Source of the DNA: Escherichia coli
Lineage (GTDB): Bacteria > Pseudomonadota > Gammaproteobacteria > Enterobacterales > Enterobacteriaceae
DNA length: 64,000 nt
Reading direction: 5' to 3' (one strand)
NCBI RefSeq assembly: GCF_003334355.1
Contig: NZ_QOWP01000014.1
Shown: positions 4,296 through 56,356 of the stretch, piece by piece
Layout: each line of letters begins with the position of its first letter
Numbering within the stretch: the first letter of the stretch is position 1
The notes under the pieces: model-generated
Seen by the model: only the letters and a program-made list of their open reading frames with translations
The model's database searches: none
Told to the model about the DNA's origin: nothing
Made by a program: the position numbers and the translations under genes

Positions 4296-4512
4296 CTGAT
4301 GCCGCACGTAGGCCTGATAAGACGCGGGCAGCGTCGCATCAGGCATCTTGTGCAAATGTCGGATGCGGCGTGAACGCCTTATCTGACCTACAAAAACAAA
4401 TTTATCAATGAGTTATAAATCCCTGTAGGCCTGATAAGACGCGCCAGCGTCGCATCAGGCATCGTGTGCGAATGTCAGATGCGGCGAAAACGCCTTATCT
4501 GACATACACACG
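4296..4512. repeat. REP/BIME cluster (two REP-pair units) between convergent yacG and mutT
   Basis: Two copies of the motif ggcctgataagacgcg..cagcgtcgcatcaggc and two copies of gatgcggcg..aacgccttatctgac in inverted arrangement; classic enterobacterial REP palindromes. Confidence 0.9.
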
Positions 4513-4904: not shown

Positions 4905-4935
4905 TATAAAAAAGGCGCAGAATCCTGCGCCTTTT
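4905..4935 (-). terminator. Hairpin with flanking A/T tracts between secA stop and mutT start (attenuator/terminator-like)
   Basis: ggcgcag-aatc-ctgcgcc stem-loop flanked by A-run on one side and T-run on the other; sits in the 59-bp secA-mutT spacer. Confidence 0.5.
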
Positions 4936-4952
4936 ACTTTAACAGTTAGCTT

Positions 4953-7658
4953 TTATTGCAGGCGGCCATGGCACTGCTTGTATTTTTTACCAGAACCGCA
5001 CGGGCAAGGATCGTTACGTCCTACTTTGCGCTCTCCAGTTTGCGCCGCCAGTGCAGCTGCGGCTGCAGAGTCGTCATCCTGATGGCTAAGCTGCTGCATT
5101 TGCGCTAAACGCTCGGCTTCCATACGACGCTGTTGTTCCAGCTCCTCAACCTCTTCAGGCATACGTACCTGGACTTTGCTCAACGTGCTGATAACTTCAT
5201 ATTTTAACGACTCCAGCATCGCTGCAAACATGGAGAACGATTCACGTTTGTATTCCTGCTTCGGATCTTTCTGTGCGTAGCCACGCAGGTGGATACCCTG
5301 ACGCAGATAGTCCATCGCTGCCAGGTGCTCTTTCCACAGGGAGTCAAGCGTTTGCAGCATGACGCCTTTCTCGAAGTGACGCATCATCTCAGCACCAACC
5401 ACTTCTTCTTTACGCTGATACACTTCGATGGACTGCGCCAGAATTCGCTCACGCAGCGTCTCTTCATGCAGTTCTGGTTCTTTATCCAGCCACTCGGCAA
5501 TTGGCAAATCGAGGTCGAAATCGTTCTTCAGACGTTCCTGCAGCCCCGGAATATCCCACATTTCTTCCAGCGACTGTGGTGGAATGTAGGCATCAATGGT
5601 CGCTTTGAACACATCTTCACGAATGCTGTTAATGGTTTCGCTCACATCGCTGACATCCAACAGTTCGTTACGCTGGGAGTAAATGGCGCGACGCTGATCG
5701 TTAGCCACGTCATCATATTCCAGCAGTTGCTTACGAATGTCGAAGTTACGGCTTTCAACTTTACGCTGGGCGTTGGCAATCGCTTTAGTCACCCACGGGT
5801 GTTCAATGGCTTCGCCTGGCTTCATACCCAGTTTACGCATCATGCCGGATACTCGGTCGGAAGCAAAAATACGCATCAGCGCATCTTCCATCGACAGGTA
5901 GAAACGGGAAGAACCAGCATCCCCCTGACGACCAGAACGACCGCGCAACTGGTTATCGATACGACGGGATTCGTGACGCTCGGTACCGATGATATGCAGG
6001 CCACCTGCTTCCAGTACCGCATCGTGACGTACCTGCCAGTCGGCTTTAATTTTTTCAATTTGCTCTGCGGTCGGATTTTCCAGCGCGGCAACTTCTGCCT
6101 GCCAGCTACCACCGAGCACAATATCTGTACCACGACCCGCCATATTGGTCGCGATAGTCACCGCAGCCGGATAACCTGCCTGAGCAACAATCGCCGCTTC
6201 GTTGGCGTGGAATTTGGCGTTCAGGACGTTGTGCTTAATACCGGCTTTGGTCAGTTCGTTTGACACCAGCTCCGATTTTTCGATGGAGATAGTACCCACC
6301 AGCACCGGCTGGCCTTTCGCAGTACGTTCTTTGATATCTTCAATGATCGCCTGAATTTTTTCCGCTTCAGTCATGTAGACCAGGTCCGGCAGATCTTTAC
6401 GAATCATTGGACGGTTGGTCGGAACAACGACGGTATCCAGCTTGTAGATTGAGCTAAATTCGAAAGCTTCGGTATCAGCAGTACCGGTCATCCCCGCCAG
6501 TTTTTCATACAGACGGAAGTAGTTCTGGAAGGTGATCGAAGCCAGCGTTTGGTTTTCGTTCTGGATCTGCACACCTTCTTTCGCTTCCACAGCCTGGTGC
6601 AGACCATCGGACCAGCGACGGCCCTGCATGGTACGACCGGTGTGTTCGTCAACGATGATAACTTCACCATCTTTAACGATGTAGTCGACGTCACGGGTAA
6701 ACAGCGCATGAGCGCGCAGCGCCGCCGTTACGTGGTGCATCAGCATGATGTTGGCCGGAGAGTACAGAGACTCCCCTTCATCCATGATGCCCTCTTTCAC
6801 CAGCAGTTCTTCAATCAGCACCAGACCACGTTCGGTCAGGTTCACCTGGCGAGATTTTTCGTCCACCGAGAAGTGGCCTTCGCCCTGGAAGGTTTCGGAG
6901 TCTTCTTTTTCCTGACGGATCAGGTGCGGAATAATTTTATTCACGCGTTTATACATTTCCGAGCTGTCTTCTGCCGGGCCGGAAATGATCAGCGGTGTAC
7001 GCGCTTCATCGATCAGGATGGAGTCCACTTCGTCCACCAGCGCATAGTGCAGTTTACGCTGTACACGTTCTTCAGGGCTGAACGCCATGTTGTCGCGCAG
7101 GTAGTCAAAGCCGTATTCGTTGTTCGTACCGTAAGTGATGTCAGCTGCGTAAGCTTCGCGCTTTGCCGGTGCTGGCATGCCCGGCAGGTTGATACCGACA
7201 GTCAGGCCAAGGAATTCAAACAGCGGACGGTTGTTTTCGGCGTCACGTTGCGCCAGGTAGTCGTTGACGGTAACTACGTGCACGCCTTTACCGGTTAGTG
7301 CGTTCAGGTAAGCAGGCAGCGTTGCGGTCAGGGTTTTACCTTCACCGGTACGCATTTCGGCGATGCAGCGTTCGTTAAGAACCATACCGCCGAGTAACTG
7401 AACGTCGAAGTGACGCATACCAAAGACGCGCTTACTTGCCTCACGTACCACGGCGAAAGCTTCCGGGATCAGATTTTCCAGCACTTCGCCTTTTTCCAGA
7501 CGTGCACGAAACTCTGCGGTTTTCCCTTTCAGTTCTTCGTCGGAGAGTTTTTCCATCTCCGGTTCCATGGCATTGATGATGTTGACCACTTTGCGCATCC
7601 GGCGCAGGGTGCGATCGTTACGACTACCGAAAACTTTAGTTAATAATTTGATTAGCAT
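4953..7658 (-). CDS. secA: Preprotein translocase ATPase SecA
   Basis: 901-aa ORF; DEAD-like motor motifs and C-terminal zinc-binding tail [14 protein letters not shown]. Confidence 0.98.
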
Positions 7659-9480: not shown

Positions 9481-10632
9481 TTAATCAGCTTGCTTACGCA
9501 GGAATGCTGGAATATCCAGATAATCCGGCTCTTTCGCAGTTTGCGGCGCATTGTCATTCACGACTTTAGCAATCGGCTTCTGCTCCTGGGTCAGCGGAGC
9601 CATCCCGTGCTGCTGGTAGCGATCCATCACTGGCTGCTGAACCTGCTTATTGGTCACCAGAGTGATTTCAGGACGTTTGTCCATGCCGATACCTGTCGCA
9701 ACAACAGTTACGCGCAGCTCGTCATTCATATCCGGGTCAAGAGAAGTACCGATAACCACGGTCGCGTTGTCGGAAGCAAATGCACGGATGGTGTTACCTA
9801 CCGTTTCGAACTCATCCAGACGCAGGTCGAAGCCCGCTGTGATGTTAACCAGCACGCCGCGTGCGCCAGACAGGTCGATATCTTCCAGCAGCGGAGAAGA
9901 GATAGCCATTTCAGCAGCTTCTTCCGCACGGTCTTCACCGCTCGCCACGCCAGAACCCATCATTGCGTAGCCCATTTCAGACATTACGGTGCGTACGTCT
10001 GCAAAGTCCACGTTCATCAAACCCGGACGAGTAATCAGTTCAGCGATACCTTGCACAGCGCCTTTCAGTACATCGTTCGCTGCGCCAAACGCATCCAGCA
10101 GGGAGATACCGCGGCCCAGAACTTTCAGCAGTTTGTCGTTCGGGATAGTGATCAGAGAGTCCACATGCTTGGACAGTTCAGTGATCCCCTGCTCCGCGAA
10201 TGCCATACGCTTCTTGCCTTCAAAGTTGAAAGGCTTAGTGACGACAGCAACGGTCAGGATACCCAAATCTTTTGCCACTTCAGCGACGACTGGTGCTGCA
10301 CCTGTACCGGTACCACCACCCATACCCGCAGCAATAAAGACCATGTCTGCACCTTCCAGCGCAGCACGCAATGCATCGCGATCCTCATCAGCCGCATTGC
10401 GGCCAACTTCTGGATTAGCGCCAGCGCCCAGTCCTTTGGTGATACCGCTACCGATTTGAATCGTCTGTCCAACCGCTGTTTTACGCAGCGCTTGTGCATC
10501 GGTATTTACCGCGAAGAATTCAACACCTTCAATGCGCTCACGCACCATGTGTTCAACAGCATTACCGCCGCCGCCGCCGACGCCGATGACTTTAATCACC
10601 GCGTCATTGGTAAGTTCCATTGGTTCAAACAT
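9481..10632 (-). CDS. ftsZ: Cell division GTPase FtsZ
   Basis: 383-aa ORF; tubulin signature GGGTGTG. Confidence 0.98.
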
Positions 10633-10692
10633 AGTTTCTCTCCGATTTGTGCCTGTCGCCTGAGGCCGTAATCATCGTCGGCCTCATAAAAA

Positions 10693-11955
10693 TTAAAACT
10701 CTTTTCGCAGCCAACTATTGAGTCGCTTGATCCACGAGCCAACTGATGCTGTAACACGTTTTTCTACTTCAGCTTCACCGTTAAGATGTGACTCTTTCCC
10801 ATAGTGAAGCAATCCCACCGCCGTCGAATAATACGGCTCCTGAGCATAATCCGTTAAACCGGTAATGTTCAGCGGCGCGCCGATACGCACTTGCGTATGA
10901 AACACGCGCTGAGCACAGGCTGCAAGACCTTCGATCTGCGCTGCGCCACCGGTTAATACAATGCCTGCCGCCAGGTGATGTTTAACCCCTTGTTGGCGAA
11001 GCTTTTCCTGCAACTGCAATATCTCTTCGTTGACCAGGTTGAGCAGCTCGGTATAGCGCGGCTCGATCACCTCTGCCAGGGTCTGACGTTGCAGACTCCG
11101 CGGCGGACGACCACCTACGCTCGGCACTTCCACGCTCTCATCTTTTCCAACGATGGAACCCAGCGCACAACCGTGGCGAACTTTAATCGCTTCGGCGTCG
11201 CTTGGCGGCGTGCCAAAGGCGTAAGCGATATCACTGGTCACGACATTGCCAGCATAAGGAATTACCTTAGTGTGGCGCAATGCCCCACCGGTATAAACGG
11301 CGATATCCATTGTACCACCACCGATATCGACGACGCAGACACCCAGTTCACGTTCATCTTCCGTCAATACCGAATAACTTGATGCCAGTCCGGCAAATAT
11401 CAGTTGGTCAACTTTCAGCCCACAACGTTCAACCGCTTTGACGATGTTTTTCGCCATATCGTTGTGACATGTGATCAGGTGCACTTTTGCCTGCATCCGC
11501 ACGCCCGAAAGTCCTACCGGATTCTTGATCCCTTCCTGATAGTCAATCGCATACTCTTGCGGGATCACATGCAGCACACGATGCTCATCGCGCACACGCA
11601 CCGATTTCGCGGTGTGGACGACGTTTTCCACATCTTCTTGCGTTACTTCTTCTTCAGAAATAGGCACCATACCAATTTCATTCTGGCAGCTGATGTGCTT
11701 ACCAGAAAGCGCCAGATATACCGAAGAGATCTGACAATCTGCCATCAATTCTGCCTGGTCAATGGCGCGTTGTACGCACTTGACCACGGATTCGAGGTCG
11801 TTCACCCCGCCTTTATCCATACCACGCGACGGGCAGCTGCCCACGCCAATGATATTGACCATACCGTCGGGCAGAACTTCCCCTACTAAAGCGGCAACCT
11901 TCGCGGTACCAATCTCCAGTCCTACTACCAGTTTTCTGTCCGTCGCCTTGATCAT
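10693..11955 (-). CDS. ftsA: Cell division protein FtsA (actin-like ATPase)
   Basis: 420-aa ORF; actin/Hsp70 fold motifs; 4-nt overlap with ftsQ. Confidence 0.98.
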
Positions 11956-32060: not shown

Positions 32061-32228
32061 TAGTTAAGCAGAAATTAATATCGCTTACTTTAACCACCGC
32101 AGCACAATTAGCTAATTTTACGGATGCAGAACTCACGCTGGCGGGACGTTTTTATTGCGTCAGGGTTGACATCCGTTTTTGTATCCAGTAACTCTAAAAG
32201 CATATCGCATTCATCTGGAGCTGATTTA

Positions 32229-32315
32229 ATGACTCACATCGTTCGCTTTATCGGTCTACTACTACTAAACGCATCTTCTTTGCGCGGTAGACGAGTGAGC
32301 GGCATCCAGCATTAA
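32229..32315 (+). CDS. leuL: leu operon leader peptide
   Basis: 28-codon [31 protein letters not shown] with four consecutive CUA Leu codons; followed by attenuator hairpin. Confidence 0.9.
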
Positions 32316-32338
32316 GCCAGCACGCAGTCAAACAAAAA

Positions 32339-32365
32339 ACCCGCGCCATTGCGCGGGTTTTTTTA
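32339..32365 (+). terminator. leu attenuator (intrinsic terminator)
   Basis: acccgcgc-catt-gcgcgggt stem-loop followed by 7 T, 24 nt after leuL stop and 43 nt before leuA. Confidence 0.9.
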
Positions 32366-38343: not shown

Positions 38344-38570
38344 AAAAAAAACCAGCAGGTATAATCTGCTGGCGGGTGATTTTACACCAATACTCAGTCA
38401 CACATGATGCAGGCAAGTCAACTTTCAGAATTGCGGTCATCCCACTGCATCAGTCCTTCAAGCATGGTTAATCGTTGTGGGACGCTTAACCAACGCAACC
38501 AGCACAACTTCGCTGTCGCGGTAAAATAGTGCTGATAAAACTGACGCATGGGGCACCTCCTTGCTTCATC
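38344..38570 (-). ncRNA. sgrS: Dual-function small RNA SgrS (glucose-phosphate stress)
   Basis: Reverse strand shows the SgrS 3' region ...gcatcatgtgtgactgagtattggtgtaaaatcacccgccagcagattatacctgctggtttttttt (ptsG-pairing segment plus terminator); contains sgrT ORF; divergent from sgrR; 5' end approximate. Confidence 0.88.
38418..38549 (-). CDS. sgrT: Small protein SgrT (glucose transport inhibitor) encoded within SgrS
   Basis: 43-codon ORF MRQFYQHYFTATAKLCWLRWLSVPQRLTMLEGLMQWDDRNSES inside the sgrS transcript. Confidence 0.85.
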   Translation of the reverse strand: MRQFYQHYFTATAKLCWLRWLSVPQRLTMLEGLMQWDDRNSES

Positions 38571-38637: not shown

Positions 38638-40293
38638 ATGCCATCTGCTCGTCTGCAACAACAGTTCATCCGCCTGTGGCAATGCTGCGAGGGTAAATCG
38701 CAGGACACAACGCTCAACGAACTGGCAGCGTTATTGAGCTGCTCGCGTCGTCATATGCGTACCCTGCTCAACACCATGCAGGATCGCGGCTGGCTGACGT
38801 GGGAAGCGGAAGTCGGGCGCGGTAAACGCTCGCGTCTGACATTCCTCTATACCGGGCTGGCGCTTCAGCAACAGCGGGCGGAAGACCTGCTGGAGCAGGA
38901 TCGTATCGACCAACTAGTACAGTTGGTTGGCGACAAAGCGACTGTGCGGCAAATGCTGGTTTCTCATCTGGGCCGCAGCTTCCGCCAGGGGCGGCACATC
39001 CTGCGCGTGCTCTACTATCGTCCGTTGCGTAATCTGCTACCTGGCAGCGCATTGCGCCGTTCCGAAACCCATATTGCCCGGCAAATCTTCAGTTCGCTAA
39101 CGCGCATAAATGAGGAAAATGGGGAACTGGAAGCAGACATCGCCCACCACTGGCAGCAAATATCACCGCTTCACTGGCGTTTCTTTTTGCGTCCAGGAGT
39201 CCATTTTCATCATGGTCGTGAACTGGAAATGGACGACGTGATCGCCTCTTTAAAACGAATCAATACGCTGCCGCTCTATTCGCATATTGCTGACATTGTG
39301 TCGCCGACGCCCTGGACGCTGGATATCCATCTCACGCAACCGGACCGCTGGTTACCGTTATTGCTGGGGCAAGTTCCGGCGATGATCCTGCCGCGCGAAT
39401 GGGAAACCCTCAGTAACTTTGCCAGCCATCCCATCGGCACCGGTCCGTATGCGGTGATCCGCAACAGCACCAATCAACTGAAAATTCAGGCATTCGATGA
39501 CTTCTTCGGTTACCGGGCATTAATCGACGAAGTTAACGTCTGGGTTCTGCCGGAAATTGCCGACGAGCCAGCCGGAGGTCTGATGCTAAAAGGTCCACAG
39601 GGCGAGGAAAAAGAGATTGAAAGCCGCCTGGAGGAAGGTTGCTACTATTTACTATTCGACAGCCGCACCCATCGCGGGGCGAATCAGCAAGTCAGGGACT
39701 GGGTAAGCTATGTGCTTTCTCCAACTAATCTGGTCTATTTCGCTGAGGAACAGTACCAGCAACTGTGGTTCCCGGCTTATGGACTGCTCCCCCGTTGGCA
39801 CCATGCCCGCACCATAAAGAGCGAAAAACCGGCTGGTCTGGAAAGCCTCACCCTAACCTTTTATCAGGATCACAGTGAGCATCGGGTGATTGCCGGGATC
39901 ATGCAGCAGATTCTGGCAAGTCACCAGGTCACGCTGGAAATCAAAGAGATCGACTACGATCAGTGGCATACAGGAGAGATCGAAAGTGATATCTGGCTAA
40001 ACAGCGCCAACTTTACCCTGCCGCTGGACTTCTCTGTTTTCGCACATTTATGCGAAGTGCCACTGCTACAACATTGCATTCCCATTGACTGGCAAGCCGA
40101 CGCTGCTCGCTGGCGCAATGGCGAGATGAATCTGGCGAACTGGTGCCAGCAACTGGTCGCCAGCAAAGCGATGGTGCCATTATTGCACCACTGGCTGATC
40201 ATTCAGGGGCAACGCAGTATGCGCGGCCTGCGCATGAACACCCTCGGCTGGTTCGATTTTAAATCAGCGTGGTTTGCGCCACCGGATCCATGA
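38638..40293 (+). CDS. sgrR: Transcriptional regulator SgrR (HTH + solute-binding-protein-like domain)
   Basis: 551 aa from internal ATG ([15 protein letters not shown]...); track ORF has 7 extra N-terminal codons. Confidence 0.94.
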
Positions 40294-40321
40294 TTGCTGG
40301 TTGATAACAAAATCACTACAC

Positions 40322-40420
40322 TAACGCCGTTCTCAACGGGGTGCCACGCAAACGCGTGCGCTGAGAAAATACCCGTCGAACCTGATCCGGATAACGCCGG
40401 CGAAGGGATTTGAGGCTCCT
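40322..40420 (+). promoter_or_regulatory. sroA: TPP riboswitch (THI element; sroA) in thiBPQ leader
   Basis: Conserved THI-box core ggggtgcc...gctgagaaaatacccgtcgaacctgatccggataacgccggcgaagggatttg about 40 nt upstream of thiB start. Confidence 0.88.
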
Positions 40421-40456
40421 TCTCAAGTCCTTTGCCACTCTTTTTTGAGGTGCAAA

Positions 40457-41440
40457 GTGTTAAAAAAATGTCTGCCCCTGCTGTTGCTGTGCACAGCGCC
40501 CGTTTTCGCTAAACCCGTTCTGACTGTTTATACCTACGATTCCTTCGCCGCCGACTGGGGGCCTGGTCCGGTGGTTAAAAAAGCCTTTGAAGCCGACTGT
40601 AATTGCGAACTGAAACTGGTGGCGCTGGAAGATGGCGTTTCGCTTCTCAACCGTCTACGGATGGAAGGCAAAAACAGCAAAGCCGATGTAGTTCTGGGGC
40701 TGGATAACAACCTGTTAGACGCCGCCAGTAAAACCGGACTGTTTGCCAAAAGCGGCGTGGCAGCGGATGCCATTAACGTTCCCGGCGGCTGGAATAATGA
40801 CACTTTCGTACCGTTTGATTACGGCTACTTCGCCTTCGTCTACGACAAGAACAAACTGAAAAACCCGCCCCAAAGCCTGAAAGAGCTGGTTGAGAGCGAT
40901 CAAAACTGGCGAGTGATTTATCAGGATCCGCGCACCAGTACGCCGGGGCTGGGTCTGCTGTTGTGGATGCAAAAAGTCTATGGCGATGACACCCCGCAGG
41001 CCTGGCAGAAACTGGCGAAGAAAACTGTCACCGTCACCAAAGGCTGGAGCGAAGCCTACGGCCTGTTTTTAAAAGGTGAAAGCGATCTGGTACTGAGTTA
41101 CACCACCTCTCCGGCTTATCACATTCTCGAAGAGAAAAAAGATAACTACGCCGCCGCGAACTTTAGCGAAGGTCACTATCTGCAGGTGGAAGTCGCCGCC
41201 CGCACCGCTGCCAGCAAGCAGCCGGAGCTGGCGCAAAAATTTCTCCAGTTTATGGTTTCTCCGGCTTTCCAGAATGCGATCCCAACCGGCAACTGGATGT
41301 ATCCGGTGGCAAATGTCACGCTGCCTGCCGGGTTTGAACAATTGACCAAACCAGCAACCACGCTGGAGTTCACGCCAGCCGAAGTGGCGGCACAACGTCA
41401 GGCATGGATTAGCGAATGGCAACGCGCCGTCAGCCGTTAA
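40457..41440 (+). CDS. thiB: Thiamine ABC transporter periplasmic binding protein
   Basis: 327 aa from GTG (MLKKCLPLLLLCTAPVFA signal peptide); track ORF starts 4 codons earlier at TTG; exact start uncertain. Confidence 0.92.
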   Translation: MLKKCLPLLLLCTAPVFAKPVLTVYTYDSFAADWGPGPVVKKAFEADCNCELKLVALEDGVSLLNRLRMEGKNSKADVVLGLDNNLLDAASKTGLFAKSGVAADAINVPGGWNNDTFVPFDYGYFAFVYDKNKLKNPPQSLKELVESDQNWRVIYQDPRTSTPGLGLLLWMQKVYGDDTPQAWQKLAKKTVTVTKGWSEAYGLFLKGESDLVLSYTTSPAYHILEEKKDNYAAANFSEGHYLQVEVAARTAASKQPELAQKFLQFMVSPAFQNAIPTGNWMYPVANVTLPAGFEQLTKPATTLEFTPAEVAAQRQAWISEWQRAVSR

Positions 41441-43026
41441 TTCCCGGCTGGTTAATTCCAGGTGTAAGCGCCGCCACGCTGGTGGTAGCGGTTGCGCTCG
41501 CGGCGTTTCTCGCCCTGTGGTGGAACGCGCCGCAGGGTAACTGGGTGGCAATCTGGCAGGACAGCTACCTGTGGCATGTGGTGCGCTTCTCCTTCTGGCA
41601 GGCGTTTCTCTCGGCGCTGCTCTCTGTCGTACCCGCGATATTCCTCGCCCGCGCACTCTATCGCAGGCGCTTTCCGGGTCGGCTGGCGCTGTTGCGTCTG
41701 TGCGCAATGACCTTGATCCTCCCGGTGCTGGTTGCTGTTTTCGGCATTCTTAGCGTCTATGGTCGTCAGGGCTGGCTGGCATCGCTCTGCCAATCGCTCG
41801 GTCTGGAGTGGACCTTTTCGCCCTACGGCCTGCAAGGTATTTTGCTGGCGCACGTATTTTTTAATCTACCGATGGCGAGCCGCTTATTACTCCAGGCACT
41901 GGAAAACATTCCCGGCGAGCAACGTCAGCTTGCCGCCCAGCTTGGGATGCGCGGCTGGCATTTTTTCCGCTTCATCGAATGGCCGTGGCTACGGCGACAA
42001 ATCCCGCCGGTTGCCGCGCTTATCTTTATGCTCTGTTTCGCCAGCTTCGCCACCGTGCTGTCGCTGGGCGGCGGTCCGCAGGCAACCACTATCGAGCTGG
42101 CAATCTATCAGGCGCTGAGTTACGACTACGATCCTGCCCGCGCGGCGATGCTGGCGCTGATCCAGATGGTGTGTTGCCTCGGGTTGGTGCTGCTGAGTCA
42201 GCGATTGAGTAAGGCCATTGCGCCAGGCACCACGCTGCTGCAAGGCTGGCGCGACCCGGACGATCGTCTGCATAGCCGCATTTGCGACACGGTGTTAATT
42301 GTGCTGGCGCTGCTGCTGTTGCTGCCACCGTTGCTGGCGGTGATCGTCGATGGGCTAAATCGCCAGTTGCCGGAAGTGCTGGCACAACCGGTGCTGTGGC
42401 AGGCGCTGTGGACCTCGTTGCGTATTGCGCTGGCGGCAGGTGTATTGTGCGTAGTGCTGACCATGATGCTGCTATGGAGCAGTCGCGAACTTCGGGCGCG
42501 GCAGAAAATGCTGGCGGGTCAGGCGCTGGAGATGAGCGGCATGTTGATTCTCGCCATGCCGGGGATTGTGCTGGCTACCGGCTTCTTTTTACTGCTCAAC
42601 AACACCATTGGCCTGCCGCAATCTGCTGACGGCATTGTGATTTTCACCAATGCGTTAATGGCGATCCCTTATGCGCTGAAAGTACTGGAAAACCCGATGC
42701 GCGATATCACCGCCCGCTACAGTATGTTGTGTCAGTCGCTGGGCATTGAAGGCTGGTCGCGCTTAAAAGTGGTCGAGCTGCGCGCCCTGAAACGTCCACT
42801 GGCGCAGGCGCTGGCTTTTGCCTGCGTGCTGTCGATTGGTGATTTTGGCGTAGTGGCGTTGTTCGGTAACGATGATTTCCGTACCCTGCCGTTTTATCTC
42901 TACCAGCAAATTGGCTCCTATCGCAGCCAGGACGGTGCGGTCACCGCGTTAATTCTGCTACTACTCTGTTTTCTGCTGTTTACCGTGATTGAAAAACTAC
43001 CGGGGCGAAATGTTAAAACTGACTGA
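41416..43026 (+). CDS. thiP: Thiamine ABC transporter permease
   Basis: 536-aa ORF; duplicated ABC permease domains; 25-nt overlap with thiB. Confidence 0.95.
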
Positions 43027-43708
43027 TATCACCTGGCTTTATCACCATTTGCCGATGCGTTTTAGCTTAACGGTAGAACGCGGCGAGCAGGTGGCAATCC
43101 TCGGGCCAAGCGGCGCGGGTAAAAGTACCCTGCTGAATTTGATCGCCGGTTTTCTGACGCCAGCCAGCGGTTCGCTGACTATCGACGGCGTTGATCACAC
43201 CACGACGCCGCCGTCACGCCGTCCGGTGTCGATGCTGTTTCAGGAAAACAACCTGTTCAGTCACCTGACGGTCGCGCAGAACATCGGGCTGGGGCTAAAT
43301 CCGGGATTGAAACTGAACGCGGCACAGCAGGAGAAAATGCACGCTATCGCCCGCCAGATGGGGATTGATAATTTAATGGCGCGGTTACCTGGCGAGCTTT
43401 CCGGCGGTCAGCGACAGCGAGTGGCGTTAGCACGTTGTCTGGTACGCGAACAGCCGATTTTATTGCTCGATGAACCGTTCTCTGCGCTCGATCCGGCACT
43501 ACGCCAGGAGATGTTGACGCTGGTGAGCACGAGCTGCCAGCAGCAAAAAATGACGTTATTGATGGTGTCACACAGTGTGGAAGATGCCGCGCGGATCGCC
43601 ACGCGCTCGGTGGTGGTCGCCGACGGGCGCATCGCCTGGCAGGGTAAGACCAATGAGTTGTTGAGCGGTAAGGCGAGTGCTTCAGCACTATTGGGGATTA
43701 CGGGTTAG
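43010..43708 (+). CDS. thiQ: Thiamine ABC transporter ATP-binding protein
   Basis: 232 aa from internal ATG ([13 protein letters not shown]...); Walker [13 protein letters not shown] signature LSGGQRQR, Walker B LLLDEP. Confidence 0.95.
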
Positions 43709-49105: not shown

Positions 49106-49375
49106 GCCGCATCAGGTATGTAACGCCTGATGCGATGCTGGCGCGTCTTATCAGGCCTACACGTTGCGATTTTGTAGGCCGGATAAGCAAACCGCATCCG
49201 GCATTCAACGCCTGATGCGACGCTGGCGCGTCTTATCAGGCCTACGCGTTCCGATTTTGTAGGCCGGATAAGCAAAGCGCATCCGGCATTCAACGCCTGA
49301 TGCGACGCTGGCGCGTCTTATCAGGCCTACACGCTGCGATTTTGTAGGCCGGATAAGCAAAGCGCATCCGGCACG
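49106..49375. repeat. Tandem BIME array: three copies of an about 85-bp REP-containing unit between araA and araD
   Basis: Unit cgcctgatgcgacgctggcgcgtcttatcaggcctac..cgattttgtaggccggataagcaaagcgcatccggcattcaa repeats with 85-bp period (motif gcgcgtctta at 49141, 49226, 49311). Confidence 0.92.
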
Positions 49376-56261: not shown

Positions 56262-56356
56262 CGCAGTTCGGTAGGCGGATAAGGCGTTCACGCCGCATCC
56301 GGCAATTGTGCGCCGATTGCCTGATGCGACGCGGCCGCGTCTTATCAGGCCTACAG
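56262..56356. repeat. REP pair between convergent rluA and djlA
   Basis: gcggataaggcgttcacgccgcatccggca and gcctgatgcgacgcggccgcgtcttatcaggcctac REP motifs. Confidence 0.88.

Follow-up and report, generated by a model that had tools for sequence, protein, structure and literature searches.

Introduction

Three TPP riboswitches are present in Escherichia coli, in front of thiC, thiM, and thiB. The crystal structure of the thiM riboswitch was reportedly described by Serganov in 2006. The thiB riboswitch is alike that of thiM in its aptamer class and in its logic, TPP stabilising P1 so that the Shine-Dalgarno sequence and the start codon are sequestered (as cited in PMC10578472). The thiM element differs by its platform sequence and by its operon, thiMD, which encodes salvage kinases, and a Rho layer is better supported there (PMC5499598). 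The thiC element has the same aptamer class and is also an OFF switch, and RNA polymerase pauses on it around the start codon as well (PMC5234074). Contrarily to thiB, its leader is longer and its control strongly dual, the Rho termination score being 12, versus 3.0 for thiB (PMC5499598).

The closest described system is the thiB leader of E. coli K-12, where the aptamer domain is also annotated as the RNA SroA (b4762). Berman et al. (2023, PMC10578472) observed that TPP represses a thiB-leader-sfGFP fusion, that point mutants of the aptamer such as G17C are constitutively ON with a loss of TPP repression, and that mutations weakening the sequestering stem abolish the response to TPP. In the same study, nts 95-99 of the leader were essential, their deletion or randomisation locking the switch OFF, while the linker nts 90-94 were dispensable, and the SHAPE-informed models contained an antisequestering stem competing with P1. 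RNA polymerase pauses near the ribosome binding site and the start codon were also reported (PMC5234074). Here, we describe the corresponding locus in a 64,000-nucleotide stretch of E. coli DNA, hereafter called the window.

A TPP riboswitch in the leader of thiBPQ

The initial annotation of the window had proposed a TPP riboswitch in the thiBPQ leader, to be checked by a covariance-model scan. When the whole 64-kb window was scanned with Rfam at the gathering threshold, a single RF00059 (TPP) match was obtained, at 40327-40426 on the plus strand. Its score was 66.1 bits (E = 8.9e-11), over the gathering score of 54.3, and the match covered positions 1-105 of the 105 of the model. The proposal was therefore borne out by this score, as well as by the RefSeq annotation and the published K-12 experiments. 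A permissive Rfam re-scan of 40250-40520 returned the same match (E = 3.8e-13) and nothing else of note beside it. In a RefSeq genome identical over 40200-40560, a feature named "TPP riboswitch" covers exactly the same interval, between sgrR and thiB-thiP-thiQ. The GTG of thiB lies 30 nt after the match, and thiB, thiP, and thiQ follow on the plus strand; this genomic context, a leader read in the same direction as the thiamine transport gene that it precedes, fits the TPP class. The ThiB product aligned to PDB 2qry (TbpA, thiamine-binding periplasmic protein) with E = 6e-211. Every feature of RF00059 membership open to computation was found.

We then compared the locus with other E. coli genomes. 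A 361-bp query (40200-40560) had matches in 5400 of 5426 complete genomes, and ATCC 8739 and many others were 100% identical over the 361 bases. K-12 MG1655 carries here the ncRNA sroA (b4762, 75516-75608), which corresponds to window positions 40329-40421. The alignment of the leader to K-12 was ungapped and showed just two mismatches, both in the loop that closes P3 (40350-40351), which reads AAAC in this strain and GUAC in K-12 (AA versus GT at the DNA level). These two positions fall where the aptamer is most variable between species. The locus (sgrR-thiB), P1, the ligand-binding core, the linker, the sequestering stem, the Shine-Dalgarno sequence, and the GTG are all the same as in K-12, and this 2-nt loop polymorphism is the sole difference between the two leaders. 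The presence of the element and its identity with that of K-12 are thus observed directly. By analogy with the published K-12 element, two loop bases apart, this leader would bind TPP and change expression in response to it; likewise, the response to the ligand, control at the level of translation, and the part played by the antisequestering stem are those found in the K-12 experiments and are expected to hold here.

The element had been delimited at first as 40322-40420. The whole aptamer does lie inside this interval, but its start, inside a -10 hexamer described below, is some 5 nt too far upstream, and the expression platform (40416-40459) is left out. The coordinates that we retained are given in Table 1. 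Altogether, these results indicate, with near certainty, that the element is the thiB (formerly tbpA) TPP riboswitch of E. coli, a translational OFF switch working through sequestering and antisequestering hairpins. It is an element already known, both annotated and characterised.

Table 1. Position of the features of the sgrR-thiBPQ region, in window coordinates.
Feature	Position	Strand	Basis or detail
sgrR CDS, 551 aa	38638..40293	+	RefSeq annotation transferred from genome identical over 40200-40560 (offset 37699), translation checked
sgrR stop TGA	40291-40293	+	sequence
Putative thiB (sroA) sigma-70 promoter	40295..40322	+	-35 TTGCTG 40295-40300, 16-nt spacer, -10 TACACT 40317-40322
Reported thiBPQ/SroA transcription start region	40327..40329	+	literature numbering; MG1655 sroA 5' end 75608 corresponds to 40329
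RF00059 TPP match	40327..40426	+	Rfam; RefSeq riboswitch feature covers the same interval
Aptamer proper	40331-40415	+	alignment to RF00059 model
P1	40331-40336 / 40410-40415	+	CUCAA/UUGAG; CUCAA from 40332
P2	40337-40342 / 40369-40375	+	model alignment
P3 hairpin	40343-40361	+	model alignment
CUGAGA block	40361-40366	+	model alignment
P4/P5	40381-40406	+	model alignment
SroA, 93-nt stable RNA (aptamer domain)	40329..40421	+	K-12 b4762, ungapped alignment transfer
Antisequestering (anti-P1) hairpin, ON state	40403..40433	+	40403-40414 pairs with 40422-40433; loop 40415-40421
Sequestering hairpin, OFF state	40430..40457	+	40430-40435 pairs with 40452-40457; 40438-40440 pairs with 40447-40449
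Shine-Dalgarno GAGG	40447..40450	+	6 nt upstream of GTG
thiB CDS, 327 aa, GTG start	40457..41440	+	RefSeq and K-12 annotation
thiP	41416-43026	+	transferred RefSeq annotation; ORF list
thiQ	43010-43708	+	transferred RefSeq annotation; ORF list

Aptamer and expression platform

In the alignment to RF00059, the three-way junction is complete, with P1, the P2/P3 arm, and the P4/P5 arm all present. Both conserved blocks were found, CUGAGA on the pyrimidine-sensor side and ACCUGAUC..GGAUAAUGCC..GCG on the pyrophosphate-sensor side, and the canonical THI-box named in the initial annotation is there, its core CUGAGA ... ACCUGAUCCGGAUAACGCCGGCGAAGGGA lying at 40361-40408. The only deletion in the alignment concerns P3a, an optional hairpin of the model (positions about 43-52). 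On the minus strand, a GTG-initiated ORF of 40 aa (40316-40438) is antisense to the aptamer; it is probably only a mechanical ORF.

Published positions were placed on the window by setting nt 1 of the literature at 40327, the only offset that agrees with all of them: G17 is then 40343, nts 5-9 are the same as nts 95-99 (UCUCA, the latter at 40421-40425), nts 5-9 pair with nts 85-89, and the 142-nt construct ends with 12 nt of thiB. The alternative, nt 1 at 40328, was rejected as it conflicts with the published pairing of nts 85-89.

Both helices of the expression platform were mapped in this leader by folding with ViennaRNA, and their base-pairing potential is read directly from it. The sequestering hairpin alone has a predicted energy of -11.6 kcal/mol and is contained in the unconstrained minimum-free-energy fold. 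In this hairpin, the GAG of the Shine-Dalgarno GAGG is paired, and so is the G that opens the start codon; the predicted unpaired probabilities are 0.01-0.06 for Shine-Dalgarno bases 1-3 and 0.17 for the first base of GTG. The antisequestering hairpin consists of 12 contiguous pairs (-15.0 kcal/mol), its invader strand being CUCAA(G)UCCUUU. This helix takes up residues of the 3' strand of P1 (40410-40414), some of P4, and the start of the sequestering strand, whose first four bases (40430-40433) are common to both hairpins; the two helices are mutually exclusive. The unconstrained minimum-free-energy fold (-48.5 kcal/mol) has a short anti-P1 hairpin alongside the sequestering hairpin. Equilibrium folding alone did not reproduce the ON state and did not separate the two states, which is consistent with the weight given in the published work to co-transcriptional folding and to pausing of the polymerase close to the start codon (PMC5234074).

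In the mechanism that we retain, transcription would begin from a weak promoter overlapping the sgrR stop, at about 40327-40329, and the RNA would open almost directly with P1. With TPP bound, the aptamer (40331-40415), a three-way junction, would keep P1 closed, leaving the strand CCUUUGC..CUC (40430-40440) free to pair with GAG..GCAAAG (40447-40457). This pairing would bury GAGG and the G of GTG and block the translation of ThiB; thiP and thiQ would probably be lowered too, via translational coupling and operon polarity. Without TPP, the linker CUCAAGUCCUUU (40422-40433) would invade 40403-40414, which comprises the 3' strand of P1 and some of P4, and the resulting antisequestering hairpin would tie up the CCUUU strand and leave the ribosome binding site open. 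That the expression platform sequesters the start region had been expected from the outset, and this expectation is in agreement with the published K-12 experiments and with the two helices mapped here.

Conservation of the leader in enterobacteria

A ThiB scan of species-representative genomes yielded 80 loci from about 20 enterobacterial genera. The leader was recognisable in all 80, one being cut off at a contig end and one matching over its 3' part only. From these, 52 distinct Enterobacteriaceae leaders were aligned. The aptamer core was invariant, the aptamer structure had 96.5% of cells paired against at most 51% in slid controls, and the P3 stem covaried, with changes on both sides at five of its seven pairs. 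In the same 52 leaders, the helices of the expression platform were conserved as well: 95.7% of cells were paired in the sequestering helix, where seven of nine pairs were invariant, and 99.7% in the antisequestering helix. Compensatory changes were essentially absent from these two helices over the 52 leaders. Being near-invariant, they give evidence of constraint only, and not covariation or proof of pairing. Past the aptamer, CUCAA, CCUUUGCC, and GGUGCAAAGUG were invariant, while the 5' half of the linker and the hairpin loops varied freely. This invariant CUCAA next to a free 5' half of the linker mirrors the published result that nts 95-99 are essential and nts 90-94 dispensable.

We also observed insertions in the P3 region, between GGGGTG and CTGAGA. 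Twelve of 79 species loci carry an insert of 134-218 nt with an ERIC-like core, which folds as a long extension of P3 (L006 2253-2501, L012 2126-2501, L013, L025 2199-2447, L032, L041, L043, L047, L057, L059, L070, and L073); their hosts include Citrobacter, Klebsiella, Raoultella, and Pseudocitrobacter, among others. The inserts are usually 134-141 nt long and reach 215-218 nt in L032 and L043, where a second insert is nested. The ERIC/IRU-like core is GTGAATCCCCAGGAGCATAGATAACTATGTGACTGGGGTGAGCG, and the whole insert forms one predicted hairpin of -47 to -65 kcal/mol. Shorter inserts of about 40-80 nt were found in the P3 of seven loci (L011, L014, L016, L017, L068, L076, and L078). At the gathering threshold, the Rfam TPP model detected none of the seven tested loci with a P3 insert of at least 134 nt, so the thiB riboswitches at long-insert loci would be left unannotated by routine annotation. 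Among the hits listed by a full-text literature search, none was a paper linking ERIC elements to riboswitches.

Start codon of thiB

The thiB start had been called ambiguous between GTG at 40457 and TTG at 40445. Both codons exist and are in frame, but the comparative data do not leave them on the same footing. GTG was invariant in 79 of 79 species loci and preceded, with a 6-nt spacing, by a Shine-Dalgarno sequence (GAGG in 76 loci, AAGG in the other 3), and the spacer GGTGCAAAGTG was invariant in the 79 loci too. At the position of TTG, the same 79 loci have TTG (35), CTG (18), ATG (10), AAG (7), CAG (3), TAG (2), or, once each, TAA, TCG, CAA, and AAA; the codon is thus non-initiating in 16 loci, three of which have a stop. 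TTG is the first in-frame start-type codon past the upstream stop and heads the longest ORF (331 aa), which is what would speak for translation starting there and not at GTG. However, it overlaps GAGG, it has no Shine-Dalgarno sequence of its own and a U-tract lies upstream of it, its position is not conserved, and the start is given as GTG in the RefSeq and K-12 annotations and, for tbpA of Salmonella, in a published study (PMC3511261). We consider a start at TTG extremely improbable, and retain GTG.

N-terminal sequencing of ThiB had been suggested as a way to fix the start. The N-terminus of ThiB has the appearance of a typical signal peptide, MLKKCLPLLLLCTAPVFA, ahead of the mature KPVLTVY..., and the TbpA chain of PDB 2qry aligns only from Lys19 (KPVLTVY) on, this Lys being preceded by a non-native residue. 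This fits with a periplasmic ThiB whose signal peptide would be cleaved. Since the signal peptide is removed, such sequencing would be unable to settle the start. The comparative data, for their part, lead to a firm assignment of the thiB start codon.

Putative promoter of thiB and possible read-through from sgrR

The sgrR stop is where it had been placed, about 30 nt upstream of the element: from the TGA to the Rfam match there are ~33-34 nt, and 38 nt to the CUCAA of P1. This tight spacing between sgrR and the riboswitch is ancestral, the distance from the stop to P1 being 38-42 nt in 61 of 75 species loci. In nearly all of 77 Enterobacteriaceae leaders, a -10 hexamer TACA(C/A)T is found 9 nt upstream of P1, with, in Escherichia, a -35 TTGCTG 16 nt further upstream. 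A consensus scan of 39900-40700 did not return any sigma-70-like site, the proposed promoter, with 7 of 12 consensus matches, being too weak for it. The E. coli transcription start was reported at the 5' edge of the aptamer (Vogel 2003, as cited in PMC10578472), and in Salmonella 5' RACE gave a common start for SroA and tbpA (PMC3511261). The conserved position of the -10 hexamer fits these reported starts at the 5' edge of the aptamer. From this conservation and the reported start, we infer that thiB is served by a conserved promoter of its own, which overlaps the sgrR stop. A thiB transcription start downstream of the element would have spoken against a riboswitch, and the reported one lies at the 5' edge of the element.

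The initial annotation had also stated that sgrR read-through transcripts would enter the riboswitch. The tight spacing and the lack of a terminator between the two agree with this; thiB having its own conserved promoter, the statement holds as a possibility only. A stronger version is that thiBPQ is transcribed largely by read-through, as an sgrR-sroA-thiBPQ operon in which the riboswitch would lie inside a longer mRNA and sugar-phosphate stress would be coupled to thiamine uptake. The short distance (33 nt) from the sgrR stop to the Rfam match, free of any terminator-like hairpin, and the ancestral character of this spacing would suit such an operon, and databases do list the unit. However, the listed unit is a computational inference without experimental confirmation, and in the one test that we found, thiQ did not rise when sgrR rose 6.5-fold under nitrogen limitation (PMC8743547). 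The starts reported in E. coli and Salmonella, with a conserved -10 at the right distance, also argue against it, as does an insert carrying espY2 that splits sgrR from the riboswitch in about 1047 of 5400 genomes, the promoter staying with thiB. Transcription of thiBPQ largely from sgrR is therefore unlikely in our view, and the database operon should be treated with caution. Read-through as such may occur, and it is not required. The juxtaposition of sgrR and the riboswitch might even be functional, some sgrR transcripts entering the aptamer so that TPP would affect the fate of the 3' end of the sgrR mRNA or thiamine uptake would rise under sugar-phosphate stress, with SroA, separately or additionally, acting in trans; we hold this to be quite improbable.

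The espY2 insert is about 1 kb long, with espY2 on the opposite strand, and the genomes that carry it (~19% of the complete E. coli genomes with the locus) include O157:H7 and SMS-3-5. It lies exactly at the sgrR stop, the junction corresponding to window positions 40290-40292 and identity to the window resuming at 40292. In O157:H7, the -10 region is kept next to the riboswitch, downstream of the insert, and the TPP model still scores 65.8 bits at the locus with the insert. The gene espY2 encodes a T3SS effector (L003 4997-6000, from a derivative of E. coli O157:H7 strain 86-24). At the insert, sgrR gains one codon (...DPE*), and setA is missing too from its place between leuD and sgrT in the O157 locus that was inspected.

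Possible Rho-dependent termination and possible trans role of SroA

In a different reading, the control of thiBPQ would be mainly transcriptional, through Rho-dependent termination inside thiB when its translation is blocked. By ChIP-qPCR of RNA polymerase in a Rho R66S mutant, thiB had a termination score of 3.0, like that of thiM (2.8; PMC5499598), and TPP alters the half-life of a pause near position 117 of the thiB leader (PMC5234074). [quoted passage not shown] In our pattern scan of the plus strand over 39900-40700, no terminator-like site was found, and the element does not qualify as an intrinsic-terminator riboswitch; the U-run at 40441-40446 sits in the loop of the sequestering hairpin and not 3' of a stem. 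Control that is mainly transcriptional is a reading that we take seriously, although we lean against it. A Rho-dependent layer may exist at the native thiB locus, the ChIP score speaking for it and the negative bicyclomycin result, obtained with a short reporter, against it.

Beside its role as a cis riboswitch, SroA (93 nt) could additionally be a trans-acting small RNA. A stable RNA of ~93-100 nt is annotated in K-12 and was seen on Salmonella northern blots; in Salmonella, tigecycline induced SroA but left tbpA mRNA unchanged, SroA depended partly on Hfq, and the phenotype of the deletion was complemented from a plasmid (PMC3511261). This evidence comes, however, from Salmonella and not from E. 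coli, SroA has no known target, and the RNA could simply be the nuclease-resistant remnant of a structured aptamer. A trans-acting SroA thus appears doubtful to us, and we keep to the translational cis riboswitch.

Other RNA families in the window

The Rfam scan also returned matches elsewhere in the window. SgrS is found at 38344-38570 on the minus strand (230.7 bits), divergent from sgrR. The leader of the leu operon scored 145.8 bits, and STnc40 and four naRNA4 (REP-type repeats) make up the remaining matches; the coordinates of the matches besides SgrS are 32215-32364 (+), 4908-4977 (-), 4311-4504 (-), 49262-49327 (+), and 56273-56351 (+). None of the SgrS, leu leader, STnc40, and naRNA4 matches is surprising in this region of the E. 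coli chromosome. A full-length match to PssrA (RF02797, 'plasmid-encoded Shigella sRNA A') was obtained at 10624-10713 (-), with 105.5 bits. This interval has a 100% identical counterpart in K-12 at 105224-105313, which spans the 3' end of ftsA together with the leader and the ATG of ftsZ. The match has the same orientation as ftsZ and faces StfZ, an antisense RNA annotated on the other strand. The family therefore matches here a chromosomal cell-division leader.

Significance

The importance of these results is limited to the correct annotation of a locus whose riboswitch is a standard model for co-transcriptional riboswitch folding. In this strain, the element would account for the shut-down of the thiamine ABC importer when TPP is abundant.
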